A DNA stretch of 64,000 bases. Source: Marivita sp. Lineage in GTDB: Bacteria; Pseudomonadota; Alphaproteobacteria; Rhodobacterales; Rhodobacteraceae. Below, piece after piece: positions 1,210 to 37,073 of this stretch. A program made the position numbers and the translations under genes. Location of the stretch: positions 20,544 through 84,543 of the forward strand of contig NZ_JAIPUT010000007.1 of assembly GCF_020055635.1 (NCBI RefSeq), in the 5' to 3' direction. How positions within the stretch are numbered: the first letter of the stretch is position 1; each line of letters opens with the position of its first letter. The notes beneath the pieces were generated by a model. That model was not told the origin of the DNA, did no database searches, and saw nothing but the letters and a program-made list of their open reading frames with translations.

Positions 1210-1212
1210 TCC

Positions 1213-3315: not shown

Positions 3316-3318
3316 CAG

Positions 3319-4080
3319 GTGGATCCGACCCTCGCCCCCGACATCGTGAGCGGCTGGATTCACCTGGCCGCTCTTGCCTTCGCGCGGGTCGGAACCGCCG
3401 TCCTTCTTCTTCCCGGCTTTGGCGAAACGCAAATCCCGCCACGGATCCGCATCGCGCTCGGCCTTGTGCTGACGCTCTCGCTTCTGCCGATCCTGCCGCT
3501 CCCGGCGCCGCCGACGCAGGTCACCGCACTTGCGCTGCTGCTCGGCGCCGAGGCGGCGATCGGCATCTTCATCGGAACCGGCGCGCGCATTCTGGTTGCC
3601 TCGCTGCACCTGCTCGGCGCGCTCGTGGGCATGGTCTCGGGCCTCAGCAATGCCTTTGCCCCAAGCCAGGCCAATACCGAAGGCGCCACCGCGCTTGCCG
3701 CGCTCCTGACCGTGGCAGCGATTGCGCTCATCTTCGCGACCGACCTGCATCACATGATGATCTCCGCGATCCTGAACTCGTACATGATCCTGCCGCCCGG
3801 GCGGCTGCCGGTGGGCGACATGACCGACCAGATCGCCCGGCTCGGGGCCGGGGCGTTCCAGATTGCGACCAGCATGGCGACGCCCTTCCTGGTCATCGCC
3901 GTACTTCTCAACCTCGCACTTGGCCTCGCGAACCGCATCATGCCGACCATGCAGGTTTTCTTCGTGGCCGCGCCTGGCCTCATTCTCGCCGGGCTTACCG
4001 TCTTCGTCATCACGCTGCCCGCTGTTCTGGATCACATGATGATGGTGCTGTCCGACTGGCTCCTCGGACTGTCCCGGTAA
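3319..4080 (+). CDS. fliR: Flagellar export-gate protein FliR
   Basis: GTG start 4 nt after the flhA stop. 253 aa polytopic membrane protein (LAALAFARVGTAVLLLPGFGE...). Lies between flhA and flhB. Confidence 0.9.
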   Translation: MDPTLAPDIVSGWIHLAALAFARVGTAVLLLPGFGETQIPPRIRIALGLVLTLSLLPILPLPAPPTQVTALALLLGAEAAIGIFIGTGARILVASLHLLGALVGMVSGLSNAFAPSQANTEGATALAALLTVAAIALIFATDLHHMMISAILNSYMILPPGRLPVGDMTDQIARLGAGAFQIATSMATPFLVIAVLLNLALGLANRIMPTMQVFFVAAPGLILAGLTVFVITLPAVLDHMMMVLSDWLLGLSR

Positions 4081-4083
4081 GCC

Positions 4084-5250: not shown

Positions 5251-5935
5251 CGGGGGCGCGGTCTCCTGGCAGGCGGGAGCGTTCGAGGATCACGCGGGAG
5301 ATGGCGTTGGCGCGCATCGGGTCCATGGTTGCCATGATCGGGCCGGAGCTGCGTTCGGGCATCGCGGAGATGACGAGGACGGCCAGTTCGAGATCGGCTT
5401 CCTGCATGATGGCGGCGGCTTCTGCGGGTTTCATGGCCTCGTAGATTTTGACGAGCCGGGTGATGTCGGCGTTGTGGTCGCCCCGGGCCTGCTCGAGAAG
5501 GCGGCTGAGCTCGTCGCGCAGGGCGGCGAGCTGCTGGTTCTGCGACATCACGGCGGCGCGGGCCAGGTCGATCTCGGCGGCGCGCAGGTCGAGTTCGGCG
5601 GCGCGGGCGGCGAGCGCGTCATGTTCGGCCGCGATGGCGGCAAGCAGCTCCGGCAGCGCGTCTGCGGGCCCGGTTTGTGATCCGGCCTGCGATCTGGCCT
5701 GGGATGTGGCCTGGGATGTGGCCGGCGCATCGGGCAGCGTCCGGCGCGGCGTTCCGGTCCCGTCCCAGGCGGCGTCCGAGCCAGGGGGCAGGGTCGGCTC
5801 CGCGACGGCGGCGCCGGCGGGCCTTGCCAGGGCCAGGGCCGCATCGAGCCCCTCGGCGCCGGACAGCAGGGAGACCGCCTTGGCCCCGGCGAGCCCTGCG
5901 AAGGCGACGGCGCCGATCTTGACCAGCTTCAGCAT
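5231..5935 (-). CDS. MotE/FlbB-like flagellar protein (MgtE_N-like C-domain)
   Basis: Start taken at MLKLVKIGAVAFAG (CAT at 5933-5935). The Arg-rich 143-codon extension in the track is rejected. The C-terminal ITRLVKIYEAMKPAEAAAIMQEADLELAVLVISAMPERSSGPIMATMDP matches the MotE-type motif. Confidence 0.65.
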   Translation of the reverse strand: MLKLVKIGAVAFAGLAGAKAVSLLSGAEGLDAALALARPAGAAVAEPTLPPGSDAAWDGTGTPRRTLPDAPATSQATSQARSQAGSQTGPADALPELLAAIAAEHDALAARAAELDLRAAEIDLARAAVMSQNQQLAALRDELSRLLEQARGDHNADITRLVKIYEAMKPAEAAAIMQEADLELAVLVISAMPERSSGPIMATMDPMRANAISRVILERSRLPGDRAPVIVRLD

Positions 5936-6264
5936 CCGCGCCGCCTTCCGCGGACGATTTCCATCAGGGAGTTGATGAGGATTTCGCGGTCGTCTGCCGG
6001 CGCCGGGCGGGCCGGGCTGTCGGTCGCGTCGACGGACCGGTTGGCGTTGGCCGCGACCGTCTCGATGCGGGCGCTTTGTGCGCGCAGGTCGTGCACGGAC
6101 TGCTCCGACCGGTCGACGGCGGCCGAGAAGGCGGCAAGGGCCGGTCCGAACTCGACAAGCGCGCGGCTCAGCCTGTCGAGCCGCCGCGACAGGACGACGC
6201 CATAGCCGATCCCGCCGAGCAGGAGCACCAGGATGGCGCCCTCGATGAGGTCCATATCGGCCAT
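5929..6264 (-). CDS. Small membrane-anchored coiled-coil protein of the flagellar cluster (function unknown)
   Basis: ATG at 6264 overlaps the fliM stop by 1 nt (TGATG). One N-terminal TM segment (LIEGAILVLLLGGIGYGVVL). Its 3' end overlaps the next gene start by 7 bp, so it is embedded in an operon. Confidence 0.5.
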   Translation of the reverse strand: MADMDLIEGAILVLLLGGIGYGVVLSRRLDRLSRALVEFGPALAAFSAAVDRSEQSVHDLRAQSARIETVAANANRSVDATDSPARPAPADDREILINSLMEIVRGRRRGC

Positions 6265-7232
6265 CACAGCGCCTCCAGCTCTTCAGGATCGGTGGGTTCG
6301 GCCGGTTCGCCCGCCTCCCGCTCGACCCGCAGCGCGATGTTGCCGCTCTTGAGACGGCCGGCATGTCCGAAGAGGATCGGGATGCCCGAGCACATCACCG
6401 TCACCTCCTGGTCGGGCAGGATGCCGAAGTCGATCTGCGTGCCCCGCTTCCAGCCGAGGATCTGGGCGAGCGGGATCCGCTTTTCGTGGATCCGGGCCGT
6501 GACGACGACGCTCGAGCCGGTGATGCGGCCCGCGATGTGGTCGCGCCAGGAGGTGTCGCCCCCCAGCTTGTCGCCGAGAAACATCGTCGATAGCCGCTCC
6601 TGCACCGGATCGAGCGTGCGCAACGGGATGATGATGCTGAAGCTGCCCTCGCAATCGTCGAGCCGGACCTCCATCCGGGCGATGGCGCAGGGCGTGTTGA
6701 CGCCGTGGATCGCGCCGATCTCCTTGGGGGATTCGACCGCCTCGAGGCTGAACCGGGCCTCGGCGATCCGCGACATGTTGGTGGCGAGATCCTCGAGGAT
6801 CAGGCGGAAGAGATGGCGCATGGTCTCGCGCTCGATCCCGGTCGGCGCCCGGGCGGGCGCGGCCCCGGGAACCGGTATGCCGCCGGTCAGCTTTTCCATC
6901 GCGGCGAAGACGAACTCGCTGTCCATCGACAGCGCGATCGCGCCGTTCCATTCCGGCGCCTGGGCCGTGGCGCAGATCGCATGCGGGTCCATCCCCGTGA
7001 CCACCTCCCCCCAGCAGGCATAGGTCGTGCGGTCGAACCGGATATCGGTGAGCAGGCTCGCCCGGGCGCGGAACGAGGCTGCGGTCGCGGGCGCCATGCG
7101 CGAGAAGATGACGTCCAGCATCGGCAGCGGCTGGAAGCCGGCCGAGGCCTTGGCGATGATCTCTTCCTCGACGAGCCGGGTCTGGGGCGCGGTCAGCCCG
7201 GGTGCGGGCGCGTGCGGGTCGGTGTCTTCCAT
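6264..7232 (-). CDS. fliM: Flagellar motor switch protein FliM
   Basis: 322 aa. Downstream of fliL on the same strand. C-terminal SpoA-like segment (...RIPLAQILGWKRGTQIDFGILPDQEVTVMCSGIPILFGHAG). Confidence 0.85.
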   Translation of the reverse strand: MEDTDPHAPAPGLTAPQTRLVEEEIIAKASAGFQPLPMLDVIFSRMAPATAASFRARASLLTDIRFDRTTYACWGEVVTGMDPHAICATAQAPEWNGAIALSMDSEFVFAAMEKLTGGIPVPGAAPARAPTGIERETMRHLFRLILEDLATNMSRIAEARFSLEAVESPKEIGAIHGVNTPCAIARMEVRLDDCEGSFSIIIPLRTLDPVQERLSTMFLGDKLGGDTSWRDHIAGRITGSSVVVTARIHEKRIPLAQILGWKRGTQIDFGILPDQEVTVMCSGIPILFGHAGRLKSGNIALRVEREAGEPAEPTDPEELEAL

Positions 7233-7245
7233 ACGGGGTTCTCCC

Positions 7246-7764
7246 TCATTGGATAACGAGGTCCTGGATCAGGACCGCTTTCGCGTTCAGTTCGGGCGCC
7301 ACGGCGCGGGCGCGGCGCAACAGCTCCTCGCGCAGCAGGGCAAAGCCGGCGCTGCCGCGCACGTCGCTTTCCCTGAGTTGCGACAGGTACTCGATGAACG
7401 CATCCCTCAGCTCGGCGGTGGGCGCCGGGGTGGTTTCGCCCGTGTCGTGGTCGTCGGCCACGGCGTCGGGATAGGCGACCACGAGAGGTGCGATGAGCAG
7501 ATGGAGCCTTCCGCCGCCGGCCCGATCGGCGGGGATGACGACGGTGATCCGGCCGACCTCGACCTCCTGGCGGTCGCGCGCGGGCGCGTCCCTCTCTTCG
7601 GTGGCGGCGTGCGGCGGGTCTTCGGAGGCGGTGTCGTCGCCGAACACCATCCCGAAGGAGATGCCGGCGCCGACGCCGACCAGGAAGACGAGGGCAACCC
7701 CAAGGATCAGGACGATCCTGCCCCGCGAGGCGGGAGCTTCGGGAAGCGCCGTGACGCTGGACAT
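7246..7764 (-). CDS. fliL: Flagellar basal-body-associated protein FliL
   Basis: 172 aa. Single TM (RIVLILGVALVFLVGVGAGISFGMVF). C-terminal ...AVLIQDLVIQ is typical of FliL. Directly upstream of fliM. Confidence 0.8.
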   Translation of the reverse strand: MSSVTALPEAPASRGRIVLILGVALVFLVGVGAGISFGMVFGDDTASEDPPHAATEERDAPARDRQEVEVGRITVVIPADRAGGGRLHLLIAPLVVAYPDAVADDHDTGETTPAPTAELRDAFIEYLSQLRESDVRGSAGFALLREELLRRARAVAPELNAKAVLIQDLVIQ

Positions 7765-7796
7765 GATGCGCGAACTCCGGGATCAGAAAGCTTTTC

Positions 7797-7810
7797 GCAA
7801 ACCGTTACCC
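7797..7810 (-). promoter_or_regulatory. Candidate sigma-54-type -24/-12 element upstream of fliL
   Basis: The minus strand reads GGGTAACGGTTTGC (GG-N10-GC spacing, TTGC at -12). The -12 GC lies about 33 nt from the fliL ATG. The -24 half is weak. Confidence 0.25.
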
Positions 7811-7922
7811 TGTCGGCGCCCGCTTGGGAAGCCCCGCGATCCGAATTTCCCGGGCCGCCCGGGGCAAAGCCCGCAGATCCGGGCCAACAGGCACAGGGCG
7901 TTGCAGGAAGGCTTCAACTTCC

Positions 7923-7936
7923 GGCACGGTCTTCGC
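7923..7936 (+). promoter_or_regulatory. Candidate sigma-54-type -24/-12 element upstream of fliF
   Basis: GGCACGGTCTTCGC against consensus TGGCACG-N4-TTGC. GGCACG is exact and the GG-N10-GC spacing is correct. About 105 nt upstream of the fliF GTG. Confidence 0.3.
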
Positions 7937-8041
7937 CGGTCTTGAGATTGTTCAAAACTCGGTATATCCCGTTTTTCGCAAGCCACTTCCAGGGAATCCG
8001 CGGGGAGTCCACGGGCGGGCAGGTCAGGCGCCGGGGGGCCC

Positions 8042-9682
8042 GTGAACAACGTCATCGACAATCTGGCAGCACTCGGTCGCCGCCGTCTCGTCCTGCTGGG
8101 ACTGACCGGGCTCGGCGTGCTTCTTGCCGTCGGCCTGGGGCTCGGCGTGGCGATGGCGCCGACCTACCGCCCGCTGGTGACGGATGCAACCGCAGCGGCG
8201 GGCGCGCAGATCTCCTCCGAACTCGAACGCGCAGGGCTGCGGCCCCGGGTTTCGCCCGACGGCACGATGATCAGCGTCCCCGAGGCCGACATCGCGCAGG
8301 CCCGCATGGCGCTGGCCGAGGCCGGCCTGCCGCCGGCCGACACGGCGGGATGGGCGCTTTTCGACAATGTCTCGGCCATCGGGATGAACAGCTTCCTGCA
8401 GAGGATCAACCGGCTGCGCGCGCTCGAGGGCGAACTCACCCGCTCGATCAAGAGCATGGACGTGGTGGAGGACGCCCGCGTCCACCTCGTCCTGCCCGAG
8501 CGCGAGACCTTCTCGCAGGAGCGGCCGGAGGCTTCGGCGTCGGTCATCGTCCGCACCCGCCGCGGGCAGGTGATGGAGCGCCGCCAGGCGCTCGCGATCC
8601 GGAGCCTCGTCGCGGCTGCGGTGCCCGATCTCGCGCCGGGGCGGGTGACGGTGCTTTCGGCCACCGGCCAGACGATCCTGGCCGAGGACGGCACCGAGAC
8701 CGGGATCGGCGATGCGCAGCTTCAGATCGAGGAGCGCCTGCGGCGCAACATCGAGAGCATCCTCGGCGCCCATGTGGGGCCCGAGAACGTCCGCGTCCGC
8801 GTCACCGCCGAGCTTGACTCGACGCGCCGGGTCGTGGTGCAGGAGAGCTTCGATCCCGAGCAGGCGGTGCCGCGCACGATCACCTCGTCAAGCGAGGAGT
8901 CGCAATCCAGGGATGCCGATCCCGGCGCGGTCGACGTGGCCAACAACCTCGTCGCCGTCGAGCCGGCGGGCGGCGGGGGCAGCAGCTCGGAGAGCCGCTC
9001 CCGGCAATCCGAGGAACGGCAGTTCTCGATCGGCTCGGTCCGCTCCGAGCAGGTCACCGAGGCCGGCGGCATCAAGCGGCTGACCGTTGCGGCGGTGGTC
9101 AACGGCAGCTGGGACGGAGAGACCTATACCGAGCGGAGCCCGCAGGAGCTCGAGCGGCTGGCCTCCCTCGTGCGGACCGCGGCCGGCATCGACCAGGCCC
9201 GCGGTGACCTCGTCACGGTCGAAAGCTTCCGTTTCGCCGGGGACATGGCGCTTCTCGACAACGAGACCGGCGGCCTGTCGGAGCTCCTCGCGCTGCATCT
9301 GGGAACCGTCCTGCGCGCGCTCATCGGCCTGGCCGCGGTGGCGCTGGTTCTCCTGCTTGCGGTCCGCCCCGCCCTCCGGCATCTCGCCGGCCCGCGCGAG
9401 GCGGAGGTCGGCGGCGGGCTGCCGGCGCTCGGCGCCCCCGGGGAGGCCCCGATGGCCATGGCGCTTGCGGGACCGATGGCGATGGGCAGCGCCTTTGCGG
9501 ACAGCCCGGGGCTTTCCGACGGGGCGCCGGGTGAAGGAGAGGCCGAGGGCGACTTCGTCTCCTTCTCGTCCTTCTCGGGCAACGTCATGCGGCAGTATGT
9601 CGACGACTTCAGCCGCCTTGTGGAAACCGAACCCGAAGCTTCCATGCGCACGATCCGCGCCTGGATCAACCAGAAGGGCTGA
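8042..9682 (+). CDS. fliF: Flagellar MS-ring protein FliF
   Basis: GTG start, 546 aa. N-terminal TM, then ...SSELERAGLRPRVSPDGTMISVPEADIAQARMALAEAGLP (typical FliF). Second TM near the C-terminus. Confidence 0.95.
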   Translation: MNNVIDNLAALGRRRLVLLGLTGLGVLLAVGLGLGVAMAPTYRPLVTDATAAAGAQISSELERAGLRPRVSPDGTMISVPEADIAQARMALAEAGLPPADTAGWALFDNVSAIGMNSFLQRINRLRALEGELTRSIKSMDVVEDARVHLVLPERETFSQERPEASASVIVRTRRGQVMERRQALAIRSLVAAAVPDLAPGRVTVLSATGQTILAEDGTETGIGDAQLQIEERLRRNIESILGAHVGPENVRVRVTAELDSTRRVVVQESFDPEQAVPRTITSSSEESQSRDADPGAVDVANNLVAVEPAGGGGSSSESRSRQSEERQFSIGSVRSEQVTEAGGIKRLTVAAVVNGSWDGETYTERSPQELERLASLVRTAAGIDQARGDLVTVESFRFAGDMALLDNETGGLSELLALHLGTVLRALIGLAAVALVLLLAVRPALRHLAGPREAEVGGGLPALGAPGEAPMAMALAGPMAMGSAFADSPGLSDGAPGEGEAEGDFVSFSSFSGNVMRQYVDDFSRLVETEPEASMRTIRAWINQKG

Positions 9683-9687
9683 CGGAA

Positions 9688-10368
9688 ATGACGATGGCGC
9701 ATCTGCTGTTCGCGCGCGACTTCGACGCGGAGATCGACGAGGAACGGCGTCTCGCCGCCTGCGTTGCGCCGGTCCATGGCCCGGACGAACTTGCCGCGGC
9801 GGTCGAAGCGGCCCGGCAGGAAGGCCTTGCGCAAGGCCGCGCCCAGGGCCTCGAGGAGGGCCGCGCGGAGATGCGCGCGGCGCTCGAGGCGCGGCGCGCA
9901 GACGCGCTCGAACAGCTCCTCCCCGAGATCGCCGCGCTGGTTGCAGATCGGGCGGCGTACCGGCAAGGCCTCGAGGCCGAGATGGTGGCCTATGTGCGGG
10001 ACGTCTCCGAGCGGGTCCTGCCGGAGATCGTCCACGCCCTCGGGCGCCGGCGGCTCGATGCGGAAATCGCCCGCATCGTCAGGCGCGCCGTCGGCAGCCC
10101 GACGCTGGAGATACACCTGTCCCCCCTCGTGGCGGACACGTTCCCGGACACGTTTGCAGACATTCTTGCGGCCGGCGGCGACCACCAGGGCCCCGCCATC
10201 CGCGTGGTCCCCGATGCCGCGCTCGAGCCGTCCGAGGTCCGGGCGAGCTGGTGCAACGGCCGCTCGCGCCATTCCTTCCCGGCGCTCTGCCGGTCCATCC
10301 TCGCGCTCGTCGCCGACGCGGCGTCCGCCCCCCCTCCCGAAGCAGGAACAGGTCCAGAAGATGCTTAA
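9688..10368 (+). CDS. FliH/FlbE-like flagellar assembly protein
   Basis: 226 aa between fliF and fliN. Charged Ala/Glu/Arg-rich coiled region (AAVEAARQEGLAQGRAQGLEEGRAEMRAALEARRADALEQ). Overlaps the fliN start by 8 bp. Confidence 0.55.
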   Translation: MTMAHLLFARDFDAEIDEERRLAACVAPVHGPDELAAAVEAARQEGLAQGRAQGLEEGRAEMRAALEARRADALEQLLPEIAALVADRAAYRQGLEAEMVAYVRDVSERVLPEIVHALGRRRLDAEIARIVRRAVGSPTLEIHLSPLVADTFPDTFADILAAGGDHQGPAIRVVPDAALEPSEVRASWCNGRSRHSFPALCRSILALVADAASAPPPEAGTGPEDA

Positions 10369-10690
10369 CCCGCCACAGCCCAACCTCCTTGACGACATGG
10401 CCAAGGACAGCCCCGCGCAGGAGGAGATCGACGGCCACAACATCAATTCGATGCTCAACGTGTCGCTGAACGTCCAGGTGGTGCTCGGCCAGGCGCGCAT
10501 GTCGATCTCGCAGCTCCTCTCGCTGGCCCGCGGCTCGGTCATCGAGATCGACCGCAAGATCGGAGAACCGCTCGACGTGATGATCAATGACCGGCTCGTG
10601 GCCCGCGGCGACCTCGTCAAGGTGGGCGAGGACGGGATCGGCATCACGCTCACCGAGATCGTCAAGGACTACGTCTCGGTGATTGGCTGA
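10361..10690 (+). CDS. fliN: Flagellar motor switch protein FliN
   Basis: ATG at 10361, 109 aa. SpoA domain: VSLNVQVVLGQARMSISQLLSLARGSVIEIDRKIGEPLDVMINDRLVARGDLVKVGEDGIGITLTEIV. Confidence 0.9.
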   Translation: MLNPPQPNLLDDMAKDSPAQEEIDGHNINSMLNVSLNVQVVLGQARMSISQLLSLARGSVIEIDRKIGEPLDVMINDRLVARGDLVKVGEDGIGITLTEIVKDYVSVIG

Positions 10691-10693
10691 CAG

Positions 10694-11524
10694 ATGCGCG
10701 GGGCCCTTCCCCTGGCCTGTCTCGTCGGTCTCTGCGCAGGGCCTGCCCTGGCGCAGGCCACGCCGATGGAGTCGCTTGGCCCGCTGCTCCGGGACCTGTC
10801 CGAGAGCCTTGGCGACGACGGCGGCGAGGCGTTGTCGGGACGGCTTGTCCAGCTCATCGGCCTGCTGACGGTCCTGTCGATCGCGCCGGGGCTGATGATC
10901 GTCATGACGTGCTTCACGCGCTTCGTGATCGTGTTGTCGATGCTCCGCATGGCGCTCGGGCTCAACCAGTCGCCGCCGAACCTCGTCATCACCTCGCTGG
11001 CGCTGTTCCTGACCTTCTTCGTGATGCAGCCGGTCTTCCAGGCCAGCTGGGACGAGGGCCTCGCGCCATTGCTCGAGGGCGCGATCACGGAGGAGCAGGC
11101 GGTGCCGCGGATCGCCATGCCGTTCCACCGCTTCATGGCGGCCAACACCCGCGAGATCGACATCGCGCTCTTCGAACGCTACGCCGCCGGGGGCGCCGGC
11201 AGCCAGGAGGCCCTGGCGCCTCCGGGCGCGGCCATGGCGGCCGAGCCACCGGACGGACCGGACGACCGCGCCGGGGTCTCGTGGTCGGTCCTCGTGCCCG
11301 CCTTCATGATCTCCGAACTGCGGCGGGCCTTCACCATCGGCTTCCTGATCTACCTGCCTTTCGTCGCGATCGACCTCATCGTGGCGTCGATCCTCATGGG
11401 CGCCGGCATGATGATGCTGTCGCCGGTGATGATCTCGTTGCCCTTCAAGGTCATCTTCTTCGTGCTCATCGACGGCTGGTACATGCTGGCCGGTTCGCTC
11501 ATCCAGTCCTACGCGGCATACTAA
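10694..11524 (+). CDS. fliP: Flagellar export-gate protein FliP
   Basis: Signal peptide, then LLTVLSIAPGLMIVMTCFTRFVIVLSMLRMALGLNQSPPN (FliP signature). Contains an unusual roughly 40-aa Ala/Gly/Pro-rich insertion. Confidence 0.95.
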   Translation: MRGALPLACLVGLCAGPALAQATPMESLGPLLRDLSESLGDDGGEALSGRLVQLIGLLTVLSIAPGLMIVMTCFTRFVIVLSMLRMALGLNQSPPNLVITSLALFLTFFVMQPVFQASWDEGLAPLLEGAITEEQAVPRIAMPFHRFMAANTREIDIALFERYAAGGAGSQEALAPPGAAMAAEPPDGPDDRAGVSWSVLVPAFMISELRRAFTIGFLIYLPFVAIDLIVASILMGAGMMMLSPVMISLPFKVIFFVLIDGWYMLAGSLIQSYAAY

Positions 11525-11546
11525 GCCCGAACACGCAGGCCCTCCC

Positions 11547-12560
11547 ATGAAAATCCCCCCCGACGACATTCGCCTGCGCGGCATCGAGAAGGCCGCGATC
11601 CTGTTCATCTGCCTGGGCGAGTCGCGCGGCTCCGAACTGATGCGCCAGCTGTCGACCCCCGAGATCCAGGCCCTCGTATCGGCGATGTCGACGCTCGGCA
11701 CGATCCCCGCCGCAACGGTCGAGACCGTGCTCAAGGAGTTCTCCGAGAACGTCTCGGGCTCCGCCGGCGTCCAGGGCTCGATCGAGATGGCCGAGCGGCT
11801 TCTGCTGAACTTCATGAACGAGGACCAGGTGGCCGAGATCATGGGCGAGCTGAAGGGCCCGGCAAGCGGCCGCAACGTCTGGGAGGCCCTCTCCACCCTC
11901 AACGAGCAGACCATCGCGAGCTGGCTCAAGGGCGAGCACGACCAGACCATCGCCGCGATCATGACGAAGGTCAAACCCGACGTCGCCGCGCGCGTCGTGC
12001 CGCTCTTCGGACCCGAGCGGATGGCCGACATCACGACCCGGATGATCCGCATCGACATGCTGCCCCGCCACGTGACCGAAACCCTCGAGAACGTCGTCCG
12101 CAACGAACTCCTCACCGCCGCCTCGCGCAAGACAAGCCACGATTCAAAGCAACGCATGGCAGACATGTTCAACAAGATGGACGGCGCCGTCTTCGACCGG
12201 CTGTCCGAGGCCCTCGAACAGCGCGCGCCCACCGACTTCATCGCGATCAAGCAGAAGATGTTCACCTTCGACGATCTCATCCGCCTCGACGCAAACGCGC
12301 TTCAGCGCATCATCCGCATGGCCGACGGAAAACTCCTCGCGCTCGCGCTGCGCGGCGCAAAAAAACCCATCCGCGACGGCATCATGGAAACCCTCACCCT
12401 GCGGATGCAGGACATGCTGCGCGCCGAAATGCAGGACATGGGTCCCGTCCGAGCCCGCGACACTCGCGAAGCACAATCCGCCCTCATCGACATCGCAAAC
12501 GACCTCGCAAGACAGGAAATCATCCGCCTCCCAACCCAGGAAGACGAACTCCTCGAATGA
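11547..12560 (+). CDS. fliG: Flagellar motor switch protein FliG
   Basis: 337 aa. GIEKAAILFICLGESRGSELMRQLSTPEIQALVSAM..., and C-terminal torque-helix region ...RDTREAQSALIDIANDLARQEII. Confidence 0.9.
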   Translation: MKIPPDDIRLRGIEKAAILFICLGESRGSELMRQLSTPEIQALVSAMSTLGTIPAATVETVLKEFSENVSGSAGVQGSIEMAERLLLNFMNEDQVAEIMGELKGPASGRNVWEALSTLNEQTIASWLKGEHDQTIAAIMTKVKPDVAARVVPLFGPERMADITTRMIRIDMLPRHVTETLENVVRNELLTAASRKTSHDSKQRMADMFNKMDGAVFDRLSEALEQRAPTDFIAIKQKMFTFDDLIRLDANALQRIIRMADGKLLALALRGAKKPIRDGIMETLTLRMQDMLRAEMQDMGPVRARDTREAQSALIDIANDLARQEIIRLPTQEDELLE

Positions 12561-13136
12561 CAAACACCCTCATCTCTATACTCAAAATCAACGGCGATAC
12601 GCCGACAAAGAAAAACGGCTGACACCGCGGCCCGGGCGGGCCCGTCATGAGCAGGGGCTGCGAAGCATCAAATCGTTCAGCAAGCTCGAAGGCCAATTGT
12701 CGAAATCGACAATCCACCTATCAAAGCAATTTCGTGTCCAAAGTGGAAACTCGCCATCTGCGCAACACAACTTAAGAGGATATCGATATCCAAAGAAAAC
12801 TTCCGTAAATTGCATTAAAGCAGGAAAAGGCAGAAATTGGGCAAAATTGGGCAAAAGCTGTGGAATTTTGTAGCAAACTCTGAAAAGTTAACATTCAGGT
12901 TGTGAGCAAGGGGAGGAAGAACACCGTAGCTTGACCGATTTTTGCGCCGATCAATGGCATCTTGATACAGCACTGGTCACCTAGGATTGCCTAGAACCAA
13001 TTCATTTTAAATCCCGTTGTACCAACTCGGTAATGGAGCCCTTTCGGCAACCAAATGGAGACGTGCGGAAAAAATGTCCGTGAAAATGCCAAAGCAAGAC
13101 ATTTAAGAAAACAGCCCAATTTTAGAGACCTGATTA
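12561..13136. promoter_or_regulatory. 576-bp AT-rich non-coding leader upstream of the curlin-repeat genes
   Basis: Two 60-nt lines counted by hand (12781-12840 and 12841-12900) are 35% and 38% GC, against 63% for a backbone line (8041-8100). No credible ORF. Contains short direct and inverted repeats. Confidence 0.5.
12834..12856 (+). repeat. Tandem 10-bp direct repeat AAATTGGGCA x2 (+AAA)
   Basis: Read directly: AAATTGGGCA AAATTGGGCA AAA. The period is one helical turn. Located about 280 bp upstream of the first curlin-like gene. Confidence 0.6.
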
Positions 13137-13499
13137 ATGAAATTCCCAAAGCTTCTCTTCACGACAGCCCTCAGCCTTTTGATGAGCGCCGGTCTTGCCG
13201 ATGACGAGCTTCTTGATCGTAACGGCTCCGGCACCTCAGTGCTGGTCGGTAAGTCTGGTGGCACAGGCATCATCGCGGGCCGTGACGTTGCCGACTTGGC
13301 GACGAATACAGAGCATCATCGCTCGTCAACGGAAATTGAAACACGTTCACCACCTTGCTGGATGACTCCGGCAACAAGCTTACAGGCCGGCGACTGGAAG
13401 CAAGTCGTCGTTGTGTCGGTCGGAACTGGCAACTTTTCCAGCACGACGCACCGCGCCTCCTCAAACTTGTCGGGGATCTCGCAAGAACCGCATGTTTAA
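13137..13499 (+). CDS. Short secreted protein with degenerate curlin-type repeats (possible CsgB-like nucleator or decaying paralog)
   Basis: The signal peptide MKFPKLLFTTALSLLMSAGLADD is homologous to those of the two following genes. The C-terminal LQAGDWKQVVVVSVGTGNFSSTTH fits Q-x-G-x-x-N-x-A-x-V-x-Q-x-G-x-G-N-x-A-x-x-x-Q at most fixed positions. Weak RBS. Confidence 0.45.
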   Translation: MKFPKLLFTTALSLLMSAGLADDELLDRNGSGTSVLVGKSGGTGIIAGRDVADLATNTEHHRSSTEIETRSPPCWMTPATSLQAGDWKQVVVVSVGTGNFSSTTHRASSNLSGISQEPHV

Positions 13500-13504
13500 C
13501 GTCC

Positions 13505-13527
13505 CCGGGAGCGGCCCACGCTCCCGG
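13505..13527 (+). terminator. GC-rich hairpin (9-bp stem, 5-nt loop) between curlin-like gene 1 and gene 2
   Basis: CCGGGAGCG-gccca-CGCTCCCGG, a perfect stem starting 6 nt after the TAA of gene 1. No U-tract follows, so it may be an attenuator or processing site rather than a classic terminator. Confidence 0.45.
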
Positions 13528-13563
13528 CATCTACCAACCTGAATTCTACAAGGGAGAATTACC

Positions 13564-15078
13564 ATGAAACTGTCCAGGCTTATCTTCACCACATCCACTG
13601 CGCTTGGCCTATCGATGACTGCGGTACTTGCAGATGGCAATGAAACCGAATTGGCACAATCCGGAAATGACAACTCGACGCTGATCGATCAGTCCCTTGC
13701 GACCAATTCCGACGTGGGTGTGCTGGGGTCCATTCCCGCGGCAACACAGAACGGCGATGACAACGTTCTCGTCATCAGCCAAGCCGGTGATGCCAACAGG
13801 ATTGCAAGTAACGCGGCGGCGGCAATTCTCCTTCAGGATGGCACTGAAAACAATGGCAGCATCGAGCAAAGCCGCACGATCCCGCCGACATCACCCTCCA
13901 CAAGCACGGGCAACGTGGTGACCGTGATGCGCCAAGAGGGTGCTGGCAATGATGTGACGATTTCGCAAACGAGCGACCAGAATCGCAACTATGCAAACGT
14001 TCGGCAGAACAATGCCGGCAATAGTGCAGATGGCAATACGGCCAGTGTGACTCAGGTCAACACCGCTCCGGACAACCAGAATGCCAACCGCAACGAAGTG
14101 TCCTCTGGCCCAGGTCACGTTGGCGGGGTTGTCCAGAACGGCAAGCGCAACACGGCGGCGGTTGAGCAGCAGGGTCAGGGCCTCCGCCTGAGACTGTTGG
14201 AGCAAGTTGGTGATGATAACGATGCGAATGTTGTTCTCACCGGCGTTGACAATGGACAGCCGGATTTGACTGTCGGTGGGCCGTCGGGCTCTGTCGGTGC
14301 GTTTAGCCGCGAGGTCTTGCAACTTGGCGATCTGAACCAGACCGACGTGAACATTTCAGGGATGGCCAATGCCTACGGCGTGAAGCAGCAGGGCAACGAA
14401 AACGATGCATTGGGCATCATGGTGACGGGGAACAACAACTCTGTCGGAGTAGGTCAATTCGGAGACCTCAACGAGATCTCTCTTGCGACCGTGGCCGGCG
14501 ACCTGAACAGCATTGGGTTCGAACAGGTCGGAAATGAGAATTTCGCTTTGGCCACAGTGAACGGAAACCAGAACGAGGCACTTGTCAGCCAGGTTGGTGA
14601 CCGCAATGAAACGCGCCTCGACGTCGACGGCAATTTCAACGAGGCCGAACTGAAAGTCACCGGAGACGACAACTATCTCAACGGATTTCAGAAACAGCGC
14701 CGCAACGACATGTTCGTGACCCTCGACGGGAGCGGCAACAACAATCTGCTTGCCTCTGACCCCTTCAACGGATCGGCGTTGATTGCACGTGATTTCGTGC
14801 GCGCCAGCGGCGGATTGAAAAGCGCGGATTTCCGGCGTGGCGACCTGATCCAGATCGGATATGGAGGATCGGGCAATTCGAGAAACAGCGTGTTCATCAC
14901 CGGCACGAATGCCGACAACAACAGCTTCGCCACCTACCAGAACGGCAATCGCAACGCGACTGTCGGGTCGATCACGGATGGAACCATGAACCAGGCCGTC
15001 GTTGCCCAGATCGGCGATGACAACAGTGCCACCTTCAGCCAGGTCGGCAATGGCAACAACGCCGGGATCATCCAATAG
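13564..15078 (+). CDS. Secreted curlin-repeat protein (CsgA-like functional-amyloid subunit), 504 aa
   Basis: RBS GGGAGA. Signal peptide MKLSRLIFTTSTALGLSMTAVLA. Repeats throughout of the type NxAxxxQxGxxNxA (e.g. VGQFGDLNEISLATVAGDLNSIGFEQVGNENFALATVNGNQNEALVSQVGDRNE). Ends ...AVVAQIGDDNSATFSQVGNGNNAGIIQ. Confidence 0.85.
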   Translation: MKLSRLIFTTSTALGLSMTAVLADGNETELAQSGNDNSTLIDQSLATNSDVGVLGSIPAATQNGDDNVLVISQAGDANRIASNAAAAILLQDGTENNGSIEQSRTIPPTSPSTSTGNVVTVMRQEGAGNDVTISQTSDQNRNYANVRQNNAGNSADGNTASVTQVNTAPDNQNANRNEVSSGPGHVGGVVQNGKRNTAAVEQQGQGLRLRLLEQVGDDNDANVVLTGVDNGQPDLTVGGPSGSVGAFSREVLQLGDLNQTDVNISGMANAYGVKQQGNENDALGIMVTGNNNSVGVGQFGDLNEISLATVAGDLNSIGFEQVGNENFALATVNGNQNEALVSQVGDRNETRLDVDGNFNEAELKVTGDDNYLNGFQKQRRNDMFVTLDGSGNNNLLASDPFNGSALIARDFVRASGGLKSADFRRGDLIQIGYGGSGNSRNSVFITGTNADNNSFATYQNGNRNATVGSITDGTMNQAVVAQIGDDNSATFSQVGNGNNAGIIQ

Positions 15079-15167
15079 GCCGTAGAACCATCCGCGCGAA
15101 ATGCGCCTATCGACGAAAGTGTCCGGTCTCGCATCGGGCGCTTCAACAAAATTGACCTCAAAAGGAT

Positions 15168-17246
15168 TTGAAAATGACCATAACCAGACTTCTTCTTACA
15201 TCGAGCAGCGCCCTTGTCCTGTCGCTGTCTGCAGCGCTTGCCGATGATAATTTCGTCCTTCTGGAACAGGAAGGCGAATCCAACTCGGCTCTGATCGACC
15301 AGACCGGCGCAGACAATTCAAGCGTGGGGCATGTCAAGCCGACACCGTCCGGCCCGGGCGGGATTGTGGATGGCATCGCAAAGCAGGTGGGTGATGACAA
15401 CGTCATGAACATCACGCAAATCGGCAGTGCCAACAGGGTTGCACCCGGTCCCTTCAACGATGGTCGTGCCGATCAGCTGGGCGATGGCAATACTCTTTCG
15501 ATCGTGCAGGCCCGCGATCCAGCCGCGACCGGCTCTTCCGGAAACCGTGTCGGAACGACCATTCAGGTCGGTGACAATCACGAGGCTAACATCACCCAGA
15601 CAACATCGGATCGCCCCAACAATGCCAACCTGCGCCAAAGCAACGGCGGCAGCGGCGAAGACGGGAACACCGCGTCCATCGTCCAGAATAACACCGGGAG
15701 CGGGCAGAACAACATCCTGACCTCGACCACCGATGGCGGCGTGGCCCAGAATGGCCAGCGCAACATCGCCTCGGTCGAACAGGACGGCACCCGGCTGCGC
15801 CTGCGCCGCCTGAGACAGATCGGCGATGACAACAGCGCGAATGTTCTGATGACCGGCGAAAGCAACGGCGTGGCACCCTACGAACTGACCGATGGCTTCT
15901 CGGGGGCCAGCAATGCCAGCGCTTCGGAAGTGAACCAGACCGGCGACCTCAACGTGACGGCGCTCTCGATTGGGGGAACGGGCAATTCCTATGGCGTGGA
16001 GCAGGCAGGGAACGAGAACCTTGCCCTTGGCATCGTCGTGACAGGCAATGATAATTCGGTCGGTGTTGGCCAGTTCGGCGACCGGAACGAAATCGACCTT
16101 GCCACCGTGGCCGGGACTCGCAACAGCACCGGGATCAACCAGACAGGCGATGACAACTTCGCCTCGACCGATGTGTCCGGAGACGACAACGATACGCTGT
16201 CGCGGCAAACGGGTGACTTCAACACGGCCACGGCGACAATTGGCGGCGGTGGAGACAACACCACCTTGATCGACCAGACCGGCAATCTGAACATCGGCAC
16301 GGCAACCGTCATCAGTGGGGGTGGCAACACCACCAATGTCCTTCAGGATGGCACCGCGAACATCGGCACCGCAGATATTTCCGGCGGCGGCGTCAACACC
16401 ACCAATGTCGATCAGACCGGTAATGCGAATATCGGTACGGCAGGGGTTGGGGGTGGCGGAAACAACACCACGGACGTCCTGCAGAATGGCAACGCGAACA
16501 TCGGCACGGCGGATATTTCCGGCGGTGGAGACAACACCACCACGGTCGATCAGATGGGCAATCTTAATATCGGTACGGCACTTGTCGGCGGCGGTGGCGA
16601 CAACGTCACCGACGTCCTGCAGGACGGCTTCGGAAACTTCGGTCTGGCCGATATCGGCAGCGCCGGCGGGAACACCACCCTGCTCGATCAGCTTGGCGAG
16701 GCCAATGACGGCAGGATCACCATCAGTGGCGGCGGCGACAACGATACGACGCTGTTGCAGGATGGTTTCCGAAACGTTGCAACTGCCGACGTCGGTGGTG
16801 CTGGGAACAACGTCCTGATGGCGTCGATGACCGGCAACTTGAACCGCCTGCAATTGGAGCAGGGCGGTGCTGGCAACAACAACATGGACGTGTCGGTGAC
16901 GGGGGACCGGAACAACTACACCTCGCCAACGCTCACCTTGCCGTTCGTCGGGACCGTCCCGATCAACCCGCCGTCGTCACCAACATTCTCGGGTGCCGCG
17001 CTGACCGCCAACGGCACCGGTCTTGGCAAAGGCGACCTGTTCCAGAACGGCGATGGCAACTCTCTGTTGCTTGCGGTTGCAGGGGACCTGAACAGCTTTG
17101 CCACGCTGCAAGACGGTAACGGCAACAGCATCGACGGTTCGGTCTCGGGCAACATGCACCAGGCCGTCGTGACGCAGGTCGGCATGAGCAATGTCGCCAA
17201 CTTTACCCAGAGCGGCATCGGCAACAATGCTGGCATTTCCCAGTAA
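15168..17246 (+). CDS. Secreted curlin-repeat protein (CsgA-like), 692 aa, with a Gly-rich 23-aa tandem array
   Basis: RBS AAGGA. Signal peptide MKMTITRLLLTSSSALVLSLSAALA. Same architecture as the previous gene plus 10 extra repeats. Ends ...AVVTQVGMSNVANFTQSGIGNNAGISQ. Confidence 0.85.
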   Translation: MKMTITRLLLTSSSALVLSLSAALADDNFVLLEQEGESNSALIDQTGADNSSVGHVKPTPSGPGGIVDGIAKQVGDDNVMNITQIGSANRVAPGPFNDGRADQLGDGNTLSIVQARDPAATGSSGNRVGTTIQVGDNHEANITQTTSDRPNNANLRQSNGGSGEDGNTASIVQNNTGSGQNNILTSTTDGGVAQNGQRNIASVEQDGTRLRLRRLRQIGDDNSANVLMTGESNGVAPYELTDGFSGASNASASEVNQTGDLNVTALSIGGTGNSYGVEQAGNENLALGIVVTGNDNSVGVGQFGDRNEIDLATVAGTRNSTGINQTGDDNFASTDVSGDDNDTLSRQTGDFNTATATIGGGGDNTTLIDQTGNLNIGTATVISGGGNTTNVLQDGTANIGTADISGGGVNTTNVDQTGNANIGTAGVGGGGNNTTDVLQNGNANIGTADISGGGDNTTTVDQMGNLNIGTALVGGGGDNVTDVLQDGFGNFGLADIGSAGGNTTLLDQLGEANDGRITISGGGDNDTTLLQDGFRNVATADVGGAGNNVLMASMTGNLNRLQLEQGGAGNNNMDVSVTGDRNNYTSPTLTLPFVGTVPINPPSSPTFSGAALTANGTGLGKGDLFQNGDGNSLLLAVAGDLNSFATLQDGNGNSIDGSVSGNMHQAVVTQVGMSNVANFTQSGIGNNAGISQ
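16242..16915 (+). repeat. In-frame tandem repeat, about 69-bp (22-25 aa) period, roughly 10 copies, inside the 692-aa curlin-like gene
   Basis: Units such as GGGDNTTLIDQTGNLNIGTATVIS / GGGNTTNVLQDGTANIGTADIS / GGGNNTTDVLQNGNANIGTADIS. GGCGGTGGAG recurs at 16245 and 16521, which is 276 bp or 4 units. Confidence 0.85.
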
Positions 17247-17459: not shown

Positions 17460-18815
17460 TCAAGACGCGCGCGAATACCGTACGCCTTCGGGCACGTGTT
17501 GATCCAGGACAGACGCGATGATGCGGGTCAGCGGGCGACCCTCCGGCGCGATGTGCAGGCGCGTGCCGTCCAGCGTGACGTAAGGCGCAAAGCGCGCCGC
17601 CATGGTGCCCAGTGACGGGGCAAGACCATAGGCGACCGGGCCGAACTCTGATCCCAGGTCATCCAGATCAAGCGTGAATGCACACATCAACCGTTCGATC
17701 GCCCGCGCGCGCAACTGGTCTTCGGCCGTCATGTGATAGCCGCGGGCGCCGGGAAACGCGCCGGTGTTGATCCGCTGGATGTAGGCGGCGGTCGCAGGAG
17801 CGTTCTGCACGTAGCCGTCCGGGAAGCGCGAAATCGAGGAGGCCCCGAGACCGATCAGGGTCTGGCATGTGTCGGCGGTGTAGCCCTGGAAATTCCGGCG
17901 CAGATGTCCGGTGGTCAGGGCCTGCGCGAGGTCATCCTCGGGGCGGGCGAAATGGTCGATGCCGATGGCGGTCAGGCCGGCCTCGACAAACCGCTCGGCC
18001 GCGCGGGTGGCAAGGGCATAGCGCGCCAGATCATCCGGCAGGGCGGCCTCGTCGATCAGCTTCTGCCGCTTCGACACCCAGGGAACATGCGCATAGCCGA
18101 AAAGCGCCACGCGGTCAGGCGCGAAGGTCAGGACCTTGTCGATGGTGTCTTCGATACGCGCGAGGCTCTGGTGTGGCAGACCGTAGACCAGGTCGGTGTT
18201 GAGCGACGTGACACCCGCCGCGCGCAGATCGTCGACACATGTCCGTGTCACGTCAAAGGGCTGCTCTCTCCCGATGGCCTGCTGCACTTCGGGGTCGAAA
18301 TCCTGGATCCCGATGGAGGCGCGCGTCAGACCTTCGGTGGCAAGTGCTTCAATCTTGGACCGGTCGACCATGATGGGATCGATCTCGACTGAGAACTCGA
18401 ACTCTTCGGCGGGGGGAAACACGGCCCTGATCGCCTTGGCGAGGCGGTGGATGAGCGGCGGCGGAAGGATCGTCGGTGTCCCGCCTCCCCAATGCAGCCG
18501 GCCCATGCGCAGGCCGCCCGGAATGGTTTGCCGCAGCAGCTCGAGTTCCGCCTCCAGCGTCCCGATATAGCTTTCCACCGGGCCAAGCGTCCGCGTGCCC
18601 TGGGTGTGGCAGGCGCAGAACCAGCACAAGCGTTCACAAAACGGAATGTGGATGTAGACCGAGACCGGGTCCGCCGGATCGAGCCCTTCCAGAGCGGCTT
18701 TTTGAAACGCGCCCCCGGTCTGGGGCGAGAAGACAGCCGCGGTCGGATAGGACGTGTAGCGCGGCACGCGCGCATCGAAAAGGCCAAGCGCCTTGAGTGT
18801 GTCTATGTGTTCCAT
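17460..18815 (-). CDS. hemN: Oxygen-independent coproporphyrinogen III oxidase (radical SAM) HemN
   Basis: Start taken at MEHIDTLKALGLFDARVPRYTSYPTA (CAT at 18813-18815). Radical-SAM motif IHIPFCERLCWFCAC. 451 aa. Confidence 0.9.
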   Translation of the reverse strand: MEHIDTLKALGLFDARVPRYTSYPTAAVFSPQTGGAFQKAALEGLDPADPVSVYIHIPFCERLCWFCACHTQGTRTLGPVESYIGTLEAELELLRQTIPGGLRMGRLHWGGGTPTILPPPLIHRLAKAIRAVFPPAEEFEFSVEIDPIMVDRSKIEALATEGLTRASIGIQDFDPEVQQAIGREQPFDVTRTCVDDLRAAGVTSLNTDLVYGLPHQSLARIEDTIDKVLTFAPDRVALFGYAHVPWVSKRQKLIDEAALPDDLARYALATRAAERFVEAGLTAIGIDHFARPEDDLAQALTTGHLRRNFQGYTADTCQTLIGLGASSISRFPDGYVQNAPATAAYIQRINTGAFPGARGYHMTAEDQLRARAIERLMCAFTLDLDDLGSEFGPVAYGLAPSLGTMAARFAPYVTLDGTRLHIAPEGRPLTRIIASVLDQHVPEGVRYSRAS

Positions 18816-18849
18816 GCGCTCTGTGTAAACGGGTACGAAACCCTCATCT

Positions 18850-18863
18850 TTGCACCAGATCAA
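18850..18863. promoter_or_regulatory. FNR/FnrL-type box upstream of hemN
   Basis: TTGCA-CCAG-ATCAA against consensus TTGAT-N4-ATCAA (9/10). Centred about 41 nt upstream of the hemN ATG. Confidence 0.4.
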
Positions 18864-19160
18864 ATTGCGCGATGAAAATACGCGGCCCGTCGAAGCCGTC
18901 ATCTGCCCTTGTGTCAGCCAGTGTGAGCCTGATCCGGGTCGATCTGTTGATCATGCGCGACAATATTCGCGCGATTTCGGCCATCTTGCCGGACGGCATT
19001 CGGGCCCGTTTCAATGGCGACGATCCAAAGCCCAGGCCCTATGCCGGGTCCGAAGGCACGCTGGCCTATTTTACCGGGCTTGAGTTGAGCCTTGTACATC
19101 TGCCGGGCAAAAAGGTCACTGGCATCTGCCATTTTTCCGGACTTCCCCGCGGGGGGGCCT

Positions 19161-20607: not shown

Positions 20608-21753
20608 ATGAAAATCCTCGCTGTCGATGACGACTTCACTGCTCTCGAAATCCTGGAACTGGCCCTGAGCGCCGCAGGCTACGATAACTTTGATCTGGCG
20701 CAGTCTCCTGGCGAAGCTCTGGCGTTTATCGCAGAGGCTGAAACCCCTTACGATTGCCTGCTGCTCGATATCGTCATGCCGGAAATGGACGGCGTCGCCC
20801 TGTGCCGCCATGTGCGCCAGATGCCGCTCTATGCACATGTTCCGATCATCATGATCACTGCGGTGCAGCACAAGGACACCCTGACAAGTGCCATCGCGTC
20901 TGGTGCGACGGATTACGTGAGCAAGCCTTTCGACGGGCTGGAACTGGTCACACGGTTGCGTGCAGCGGAATCGCTCATGAACGCAACCAAGGCGGCACAC
21001 CGGCATGCGCGCCCCAACCCGGTCAAAGCTCGGGCAGAGCGCGCATCGGCCCTGCAACTGCCGGACGCTTTCAGCCTTGAATCGAAACCGGGGCTTGTGA
21101 GCCAGGCAGATCTCGTGTGCGAATTCATGGAGACAGATCAACTCCGCCGGTCCATGCACATGTTTTCGGTCGCCGTCTCGGACGTCGAACGTCTCTGGGA
21201 CGCGTTAACAGCCACCGAGTTCCGGGCCTTCGTGAACGAACTGGCCAATTCGATTTACCATGTCACGGCGGCGTGGAATCCACGGATCAGCTATACCGGC
21301 CACGGCGTCTTCTTGGTCGCGCTCTTCGATGTCGGGTTCATATCCGCCAAGGGCATCCATAGCGTATTCAAGGCCAGCCTGGCGACAACGGCATTCCAAA
21401 CCGTCGCCGCCTGTCGCGCCGAGATAGCGCTTTGTGTCGAACATGTCCGTCTTTCGGACCCGGATGACCACCTGCGCATCAATGCCCTCTTCCAGGCCGG
21501 GACCATCGCGAGGGGCAATGCCGCCCATCGAACCACGGCCGAATGCGAGACGGACATGCGCCATCAGATCCTTGGACGAGACCAGCAATGCGTCGTCACC
21601 TCCTACGAGATTGCGTTGATGAAGGCCGCCCCGCAAAAGATCATTCCGCGGCGCATCTCCCGTGGCCAGCAGCGTGCCTCTCAGGTATCGGAAGCCTCCG
21701 CCGACAAGCGGGACGCGGCAGTCGGAAAACAGCCCTTTCTATTCGAGAGGTAA
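20608..21753 (+). CDS. Response regulator: REC domain plus a roughly 250-aa uncharacterised (degenerate GGDEF-like?) output domain
   Basis: REC: MKILAVDDDFTALEI...DCLLLDIVMPEMDGVAL...VPIIMITA...DYVSKPF. C-terminal region ...FRAFVNELANSIYHVTAAWNPRISYTGHGVFLVALFD. Confidence 0.8.
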   Translation: MKILAVDDDFTALEILELALSAAGYDNFDLAQSPGEALAFIAEAETPYDCLLLDIVMPEMDGVALCRHVRQMPLYAHVPIIMITAVQHKDTLTSAIASGATDYVSKPFDGLELVTRLRAAESLMNATKAAHRHARPNPVKARAERASALQLPDAFSLESKPGLVSQADLVCEFMETDQLRRSMHMFSVAVSDVERLWDALTATEFRAFVNELANSIYHVTAAWNPRISYTGHGVFLVALFDVGFISAKGIHSVFKASLATTAFQTVAACRAEIALCVEHVRLSDPDDHLRINALFQAGTIARGNAAHRTTAECETDMRHQILGRDQQCVVTSYEIALMKAAPQKIIPRRISRGQQRASQVSEASADKRDAAVGKQPFLFER

Positions 21754-36817: not shown

Positions 36818-37073
36818 GTCCTGTCGCCTTTTTTGTGCCGATGGGCCCTCGGGATCGTCTTCAAGACGGGTCCGCGCCGGTATCGTCGCTTCGAAAGGTG
36901 TGATTCGTCTTATATATACTTGATGTCCCCACGTAGCGGGTCTGTGGCGGGCCCGGTGGAGCGCAGTGACCCGTTTCGGGTCATCCTCGGCGCCTGGATC
37001 AAGAGAATCGCCATACTCATGGGCAAGCGAACAAGTCTTGGGGACGCCTGCGGGCGTCCGGCTCGGAGGGACC

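Follow-up and report, generated by a model that had tools for sequence, protein, structure and literature searches.

A 64,000-nucleotide stretch of contig NZ_JAIPUT010000007.1 of Marivita sp. (hereafter the window) carries, between positions 13137 and 17246 on the forward strand, a small operon that encodes two very long curlin-repeat proteins. We consider it probable that this locus belongs, as the large-curlin operon, to an alphaproteobacterial (Rhodobacterales-type) CsgG/CsgF curli system, and that it has become physically separated from the operon encoding secretion and nucleation functions. The csgF and csgG genes (csgFG) are likely located elsewhere in the genome, because 98% of the genomes with CsgA also have CsgG (Sleutel et al., 2023; PMC10192328) and both curlin genes show evidence of selection. 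A first-pass annotation, made from the sequence alone, had described an orphan locus of three curlin genes and had raised the possibility of a new export route. Judged by the loci of related bacteria, its orphan status appears to be only local.

The two large products, p504 and p692, are assigned to the curlin family through their repeats. According to Pfam, p504 (504 amino acids (aa); 13564–15078, + strand) matches Curlin_rpt in 5 stretches (66.9 bits, E = 1.5e-18) and p692 (15174–17246, + strand) matches it in 11 stretches (92.4 bits, E = 1.6e-26), against a gathering score of 20.7; no other Pfam family attains its gathering score in p504 or p692. The family call, and with it the probable identity of the two products as functional-amyloid-type subunits, therefore stands, whereas the third proposed curlin, a 120-aa open reading frame (ORF), has no Curlin_rpt match and is probably a relic. 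The likely start of p692 is the ATG at 15174, which gives 690 aa, is preceded by AGGA 7 nt upstream, and is called identically on contigs L001 and L002; an alternative TTG at 15168 would yield 692 aa (ORF 15168–17246). The two proteins are thus 3.3–4.6 times the length of CsgA, within the 3–5-fold range first given. By motif layout, Q-x-G-x-x-N-x-A strands number about 30 in p504 and about 45 in p692. Both proteins lack Cys and Trp, contain 25–29% Asn plus Gly, and end in a curlin repeat with the C-termini reported earlier, QVGNGNNAGIIQ (p504) and QSGIGNNAGISQ (p692).

Both large curlins are predicted to carry an N-terminal Sec signal peptide, with a basic n-region, a hydrophobic core and a V-L-A or A-L-A site before Asp. 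In p504 the predicted signal peptide spans approximately residues 1–23 (ending in VLA, before DG) and is followed by about 20 curlin rungs; in p692 the signal peptide is followed by the 45 or so strand motifs, and the protein has at least 22 strand-turn-strand rungs. A tandem DNA repeat at 16244–16628 (+ strand; period 69/138 nt, or 23/46 aa; 2.8–4.9 copies; Tandem Repeats Finder scores 247 and 448) appears from its sequence to be a recent in-register expansion of GGGxNTTxVxQxGNxNIGTAxV curlin units (p692 residues 358–553). Escherichia coli CsgA and CsgB find both genes by tblastn (E ~3e-4). The NCBIfam equivalogs for CsgA and CsgB (NF007470, NF007506) score only 46–79 bits against cut-offs of 160–165, so p504 and p692 are members of the curlin family and not strict CsgA or CsgB orthologues. 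Across 23 homologues, the most conserved parts are the N-terminal first repeat, in which A23, N26, Q32, and G34 are nearly invariant and N37 and Q43 are invariant, and the last C-terminal repeats, in which Q493, G495, N498, and the C-terminal Q504 are invariant (p504 numbering).

An AlphaFold2 model of p504, built with 23 sequences, is all-beta and periodic, with 39 regularly spaced beta-strands, a mean predicted local distance difference test score (pLDDT) of 77 and a predicted template modeling score (pTM) of 0.75. The pLDDT falls below 50 for residues 1–23, and model confidence is also low in non-repeat inserts such as residues 100–118 and 389–458. The sole PDB sequence match of p504 is the curlin-repeat protein 8C50 (E = 3.5e-5), and the same entry, a Pontibacter CsgA, ranks first in Foldseek, although at E = 0.097 and a template modeling (TM) score of 0.28–0.33 the structural match is not significant. 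A further candidate, an RTX/type I secretion system (T1SS) or autotransporter beta-helix adhesin, was rejected, since only Curlin_rpt reaches its gathering score and the proteins end in a curlin repeat.

Related loci provide evidence for membership in a CsgG/CsgF system. Homologues of p504 are found in roseobacter-group Rhodobacterales (Roseovarius, Pseudoponticoccus, Phaeobacter, Cognatishimia, Roseivivax, and Profundibacterium) and in Hoeflea, with identities of 57% to P0002, 48% to P0004 and 45% to L004_big535. In all six relatives in which the region can be read (L003, L004, L005, L006, L007, and L010), the closest one included (L007, 57% identity), a csgF-csgG operon adjoins the orthologous large curlins. 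This operon runs csgF, csgG, a short curlin of ~160 aa, a second short curlin of ~210–250 aa, a 108–132-aa protein, and a ~250-aa SH3_3/Inh-like protein, and the same context (csgF-csgG-cur157-cur246-x130-SH3) is seen again in L116–L119. The large curlins are divergent from the csgFG operon in the six relatives and stand 2–4 in tandem where the array can be read. The relatives thus carry short curlins (157–249 aa) in the csgFG operon plus 1–6 large paralogues in a separate operon. The small 127-aa protein of L007 has CsgH (2N59) as its top PDB match, at E = 0.13. The SH3_3/Inh-like protein, whose conservation extends from Rhodobacterales to Mesorhizobium and Devosia, does not belong to the curli genes that have been described.

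Inside the array, too, the genes keep their order: p504 best matches the first and p692 the second gene of the Roseovarius array, whose L004_big623 scores 343 bits against p692 and 176 bits against p504. By these matches, p504 appears to be the orthologue of the first gene of the relatives' large-curlin array, and p692 that of the second gene of the Roseovarius array, L004_big623. The first-pass annotation had itself held that a csg operon conserved beside orthologues elsewhere would make the system ordinary, and such an operon, csgF-csgG with a CsgH-like gene, is what all six relatives show. Because the orthologues adjoin csgFG in every readable relative, the orphan reading is unsupported, and with it the suggestion of a new export route.

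The association extends well beyond the closest relatives. In a CsgG-anchored survey of species-representative genomes, 44 csgFG loci were collected, mainly from Rhodobacterales, Mesorhizobium and other Rhizobiales, and Devosia. Large curlins stand beside csgFG in 41 of them, as 1–6 curlin ORFs of 340–990 aa within 10 kb, and the other three are cut by contig ends; no complementary locus, with csgFG and without large curlins, was found among the 44, the three without curlins being those truncated. The position of the large-curlin block relative to csgFG varies: most loci show a divergent arrangement, L015 and L016 a convergent one, and Mesorhizobium a co-directional one. This varying position indicates that the block is an autonomous, movable unit.

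The remaining line of evidence concerns the state of the two genes. Both large ORFs are intact, with a G+C content at third codon positions (GC3) and ribosome-binding sites (GGGAGA for the p504 gene) that look normal. Compared with two near-identical metagenome contigs (99.7–99.9% identity), the curlin genes differ by 6 synonymous and 2 non-synonymous changes, a pattern that resembles that of the neighboring housekeeping genes and that suggests, in a small sample, purifying selection on both.

Several observations weigh against a separated but complete system. Neither csgG nor csgF is present in the 64-kb window, and neither has been found for this organism; the p120 relic shows the locus to have undergone some decay or rearrangement; and, as noted, the structural match to a solved curli subunit is not significant (E ~0.1, TM ~0.3). 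The absence from the window, which the first-pass annotation had already noted, was confirmed in several ways. By tblastn, the CsgF, CsgG, short-curlin, CsgH-like, and SH3 proteins of four relatives have no match in the 64 kb (for the relatives' CsgH-like x121–x132 proteins, no significant match), the E. coli CsgG, CsgF, CsgE, CsgD, and CsgC queries likewise find nothing there, and Pfam scans of ~45 window ORFs reveal no csg partner. As a positive control, the same E. coli CsgG and CsgF queries match the loci of all six relatives, with CsgG at E = 1e-43 to 1e-59. Outside the window, the organism's curlin is carried by two metagenome samples, ERZ27257105 and 3300009061. A protein search with the CsgG of the closest relative returned 1504 matches, and those that were traced all come from other samples, none from ERZ27257105 or 3300009061, which is a weak negative as few candidates were sampled and the search was pattern-limited. 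The CsgG candidates P0156, P0058, P0160, and P0042 belong to such other samples (Hot Lake, Tara, and others), and wherever the region is readable the candidates have a divergent curlin array upstream of csgF. A scan of JGI metagenomes for CsgG gave no contig from sample 3300009061.

Some of these observations also fit an alternative in which csgFG was deleted in the lineage and the two large curlins are leftovers, non-functional or decaying. Besides the lack of csgFG within 64 kb, the decayed curlin relic directly upstream and the failure to recover a matching CsgG contig from the samples that carry this organism, such a loss has a precedent in the ~2% of CsgA-containing genomes (1,033 of 43,279) without CsgG (Sleutel et al., 2023; PMC10192328). 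Relaxed selection would, however, quickly bring frameshifts, and both ORFs are long, repeat-rich and intact. The ratio of 6 synonymous to 2 non-synonymous polymorphisms, the normal-looking GC3 and ribosome-binding sites, and the expansion in p692, which keeps the curlin motif in register, all speak against decay, and the base rate strongly favors the presence of CsgG. We therefore regard loss of csgFG as unlikely.

A second alternative accepts CsgG-dependent export and denies the fibre role: the large curlins would be monomeric or fibre-decorating beta-solenoids (caps, adhesins, or spacers) that dock on fibres of the short CsgA/B-like curlins. The coexistence of short curlins with 1–6 large paralogues in separate operons does suggest a division of labor, and strong conservation is confined to the terminal repeats, with low-confidence non-repeat inserts between them. 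Against this, open-ended curlin solenoids without capping domains polymerize by beta-sheet augmentation (Sleutel et al., 2023; PMC10192328), the 15-repeat CsgA homologue 8C50, which is the sole PDB sequence match of p504, forms fibres, and neither p504 nor p692 has an adhesin or enzyme domain. A purely accessory role is accordingly held to be improbable. The option of beta-solenoid surface proteins, which the first-pass annotation had set apart from fibre subunits, is compatible with the proteins being curli subunits and does not conflict with the reading preferred here.

The least convincing alternative, a genome without csgFG in which functional giant curlins leave by a non-CsgG outer-membrane route (e.g., a different secretin or lipoprotein channel), is very doubtful: apart from the suggestion of alternative biogenesis for the many Alphaproteobacteria that show only curlin subunits, plus csgH (PMC3521004), its only support is that no csgFG is in view, whereas no candidate exporter is adjacent (the neighbors being fliG, hemN, and the genes for an FAA hydrolase and a response regulator), csgFG-linked orthologues share the conserved N-terminal segment, every informative relative pairs large curlins with csgFG, and Curlin_rpt alone reaches its gathering score, with no C-terminal T1SS, autotransporter, or type IX secretion (T9SS)-type domain. 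Among the three options that the first-pass annotation had left standing (export genes elsewhere, another outer-membrane route, or surface proteins that are not fibre subunits), export genes elsewhere are by far the best supported, and the other outer-membrane route has no positive evidence in its favor.

If the locus is indeed a separated part of a CsgG/CsgF system, the large curlins would be exported through Sec and kept unfolded in the periplasm, and would then pass through a CsgF-capped CsgG channel whose genes lie elsewhere in the genome. Once extracellular, they would fold into beta-solenoids ~10 nm long, which may stack end to end into curli-type fibres. The short CsgB-like curlins encoded in the csgFG operon would probably act as nucleators or templates, and the large curlins are homologous to the short curlins at their C-termini: the C-terminal 70–145 residues of the large proteins correspond to the repeat core of the short ones. 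For instance, L005_cur171 aligns with p504 residues 359–504 at E = 7e-10, and L003_cur157 aligns with the C-terminus of p692 at E = 4.5e-7.

The ORF upstream of the two large genes records part of the history of the locus. This 120-aa ORF (p120; 13137–13499, + strand) is probably the remnant of a third large curlin gene that has kept its signal peptide and first repeat, suffered an internal deletion, and acquired a frameshift before the C-terminal repeat, as its alignments suggest. Residues 1–52, which cover the signal peptide and first repeat, are 40% identical to p504 (E = 7e-5), in agreement with the homologous signal peptides described in the first-pass annotation. Residues 1–120 align with residues 1–120 of L004_big599, a 599-aa Roseovarius curlin paralogue (E ~2–5e-8). 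By blastx, nt 241–288 of the p120 region match residues 548–563 of the same paralogue in frame 1, and nt 278–385 match the adjoining residues 564–599 in frame 2; many other large curlins also align here by their extreme C-termini. p120 has a flat codon-position GC (0.55/0.52/0.61) and a weak ribosome-binding site, and its residues include Cys, Trp, and His. The large-curlin arrays of relatives likewise have small curlin fragments at their ends, and the relic is consistent with a rearrangement scar.

The three + strand ORFs lie, as first described, between fliG and a convergent hemN, and this arrangement with convergent hemN is shared by contig L001. The upstream neighbor, fliG (11547–12560, + strand; FliG_N/M/C in Pfam), is outside the curlin system and is the final gene of a GC-rich flagellar cluster that occupies window positions 1–12560 and includes, upstream of fliG, SLT, flhA, fliR, flhB, fliM, fliL, fliF, and fliP. 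The downstream neighbor, likewise outside the system, is a HemN-type radical SAM gene (17460–18902, − strand; Radical_SAM, with a weak HemN_C match). An AT-rich spacer of 576 bp (12561–13136; 45.7% GC) separates fliG from p120 and presumably holds the promoter and regulatory sequences for the curlin genes. Within it are a 10-nt direct repeat, GGCAAAATTG, in 2.7 copies at 12829–12856, and two minus-strand terminator-like hairpins at 12592–12604 and 12615–12628, with no evident minus-strand gene; the direct repeat or the hairpins could represent a regulator-binding site or a small RNA. Promoter and terminator scans of the spacer gave no significant consensus match, with counts no higher than in shuffled sequence, and the spacer has no nucleotide similarity to the csgF-curlin intergenic regions of the relatives. 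An Rfam scan of the whole window found no family at gathering score.

The position directly after a flagellar cluster had suggested a motility/attachment switch. The fliG, fliP, fliF, and flhA genes of the window, however, have no homologue in the related loci searched, and flagellar adjacency is seen in 0 of 117 such loci. Since these flagellar genes are lacking there, the position beside the cluster appears to be a lineage-specific rearrangement and not a conserved functional coupling. As to flank synteny, Roseovarius L004 is the only relative with a hemN (50% identity) close to the curli cluster, and the flanks yielded no breakpoint. One plausible account is that the flagellar cluster inserted between the curlin operon and csgFG, a suggestion that rests on GC contrast, in a cluster that runs off the left end of the window. 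The cluster has a GC fraction of 0.64–0.72 and GC3 of 0.73–0.93, compared with ~0.62 and ~0.70–0.78 in the remainder of the window, and by its composition it may be a separately acquired block. A plasmid origin was considered and set aside, as megablast of window positions 1–25000 against PLSDB gave only matches of 71–79%, all of them in flagellar genes (e.g., flhA and fliP).

Mobile elements at the junctions of relatives' loci offer another plausible route to the separation of the large curlins from csgFG. In a relative from the Hot Lake consortium (L011, 1–110; L012, 1–70), contigs of several assemblies end ~500 bp upstream of csgF, within the N-terminal part of an IS5-like transposase (MSSWAPTKYKTTNWSAYNEALKRRGS, reverse strand), which places a mobile element in the csgF-curlin intergenic region. 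In L116 and L117, an rve integrase follows the SH3 gene of the curli operon.

The compositional distinctness noted in the first-pass annotation is real in part. The two curlin genes have GC contents of 56.6 and 60.5%, lower than the ~62–64% of the non-flagellar rest of the window; the figure of 50% overstated the difference. Their GC3 (0.69–0.75) is near the local norm (~0.70–0.78), so the lower GC reflects an N/D/T/S/G-rich composition and no evident foreign origin; the inference of a foreign origin from low GC was rejected on the GC3 and the amino-acid bias.

The wider window holds several genes of separate interest. At a distance of 3.3 kb downstream from the curlins, a gene (20608–21753, + strand) encodes a response regulator of 381 aa with a REC domain and an unassigned C-terminal region. 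A homologue that matches it beyond the REC domain stands directly after the curli operon of Pseudorhodobacter wandonensis (L022, 14080–14796), and in none of the other 116 loci; with a homologue adjoining the curli operon in only 1 of 117 loci, it was rejected as a CsgD-like curli regulator. A giant RTX-type ORF with GGxGxD calcium-binding nonapeptides (58399–64000, + strand; >1860 aa) runs off the right end of the window and probably encodes, to judge from these repeats, a T1SS-secreted adhesin; an 891-aa minus-strand ORF (59389–62064) is the antisense shadow of this gene. The curli clusters of L007 and L003 also have giant proteins, of the Calx-beta/HemolysinCabind or Big_13 type, on their flanks, in L003 together with a T1SS. 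At 35384–37390 (− strand), a 668-aa lipoprotein-like fusion combines YscW, NlpE N- and C-terminal, and META domains. The NlpE protein of E. coli senses surfaces and activates the Cpx envelope stress response. Other window genes identified by Pfam comprise an FAA hydrolase, DUF1045, LysR, TctCA, GGT, a P-type ATPase, MscS, the NlpE-like lipoprotein and response regulator already described, heme uptake genes, ferritin, ExbB, and metabolic genes.

The locus mainly illustrates how weakly an absence of visible partner genes argues for an orphan system. In Rhodobacterales, Rhizobiales, and Devosia, very long curlins normally form multi-paralogue arrays beside csgFG, and the locus described here is probably a relocated array of this kind. 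It has the modest value of documenting the large-curlin operon as an autonomous, movable transcription unit, and it draws attention to the division between short (CsgA/B-like) and large curlins, which is widespread in marine Alphaproteobacteria and experimentally untouched. We think it highly unlikely that the genome truly lacks csgG and csgF and yet retains two selected, intact giant curlins. If it did, this would mean CsgG-independent outer-membrane export, or a non-canonical (e.g., periplasmic or vesicle-borne) role of curlin solenoids, in a roseobacter-group bacterium, and a complete genome without CsgG would bear on how amyloid subunits cross the outer membrane.

The size and number of the paralogues and the absence of csgE, csgC, and csgD are already known from the literature (PMC3521004; PMC10192328). 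Alphaproteobacteria lack csgC, csgD, and csgE and often possess csgH, in some of them only curlin subunits are detectable, and CsgA homologues have up to 22 repeats (Dueholm et al., 2012; PMC3521004). Genomes may hold up to 30 CsgA-like copies, solenoid length has been shown to scale with repeat number, and the structure of a 15-repeat homologue has been solved (Sleutel et al., 2023; PMC10192328). The unusual feature of the Marivita locus is only the separation of its large-curlin operon from csgFG, beside a flagellar cluster, and this is minor.

The locus resembles the alphaproteobacterial curli systems (PMC3521004) in that its curlin-repeat subunits carry Sec signals and far exceed E. coli CsgA in repeat number, and in that csgC, csgD, and csgE are lacking. 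In those systems, orthologues in Roseovarius, Pseudoponticoccus, Hoeflea, and several metagenome-assembled relatives adjoin csgF-csgG, short curlins and a CsgH-like gene, whereas the large-curlin operon of the window stands alone, with no csgF, csgG, short-curlin, CsgH-like, or SH3 gene within 64 kb and with a flagellar cluster upstream. With CsgA and CsgB of E. coli and Salmonella, the proteins share the Q/N-x-G-x-x-N-x-A-x-x-x-Q repeat and a predicted strand-arc-strand stacking. On the other hand, they are 3.3–4.6 times longer, with ~20 or more rungs in place of 5, and, unlike the products of the csgBAC operon, they contain non-repeat inserts and are encoded in a multi-paralogue array. The 15-repeat CsgA homologue of Pontibacter korlensis (PDB 8C50; PMC10192328) is likewise a long multi-repeat curlin solenoid; it comes from a member of the Bacteroidota and has near-perfect repeats, whereas the window proteins have degenerate repeats with inserts and match it structurally without significance (TM ~0.3).

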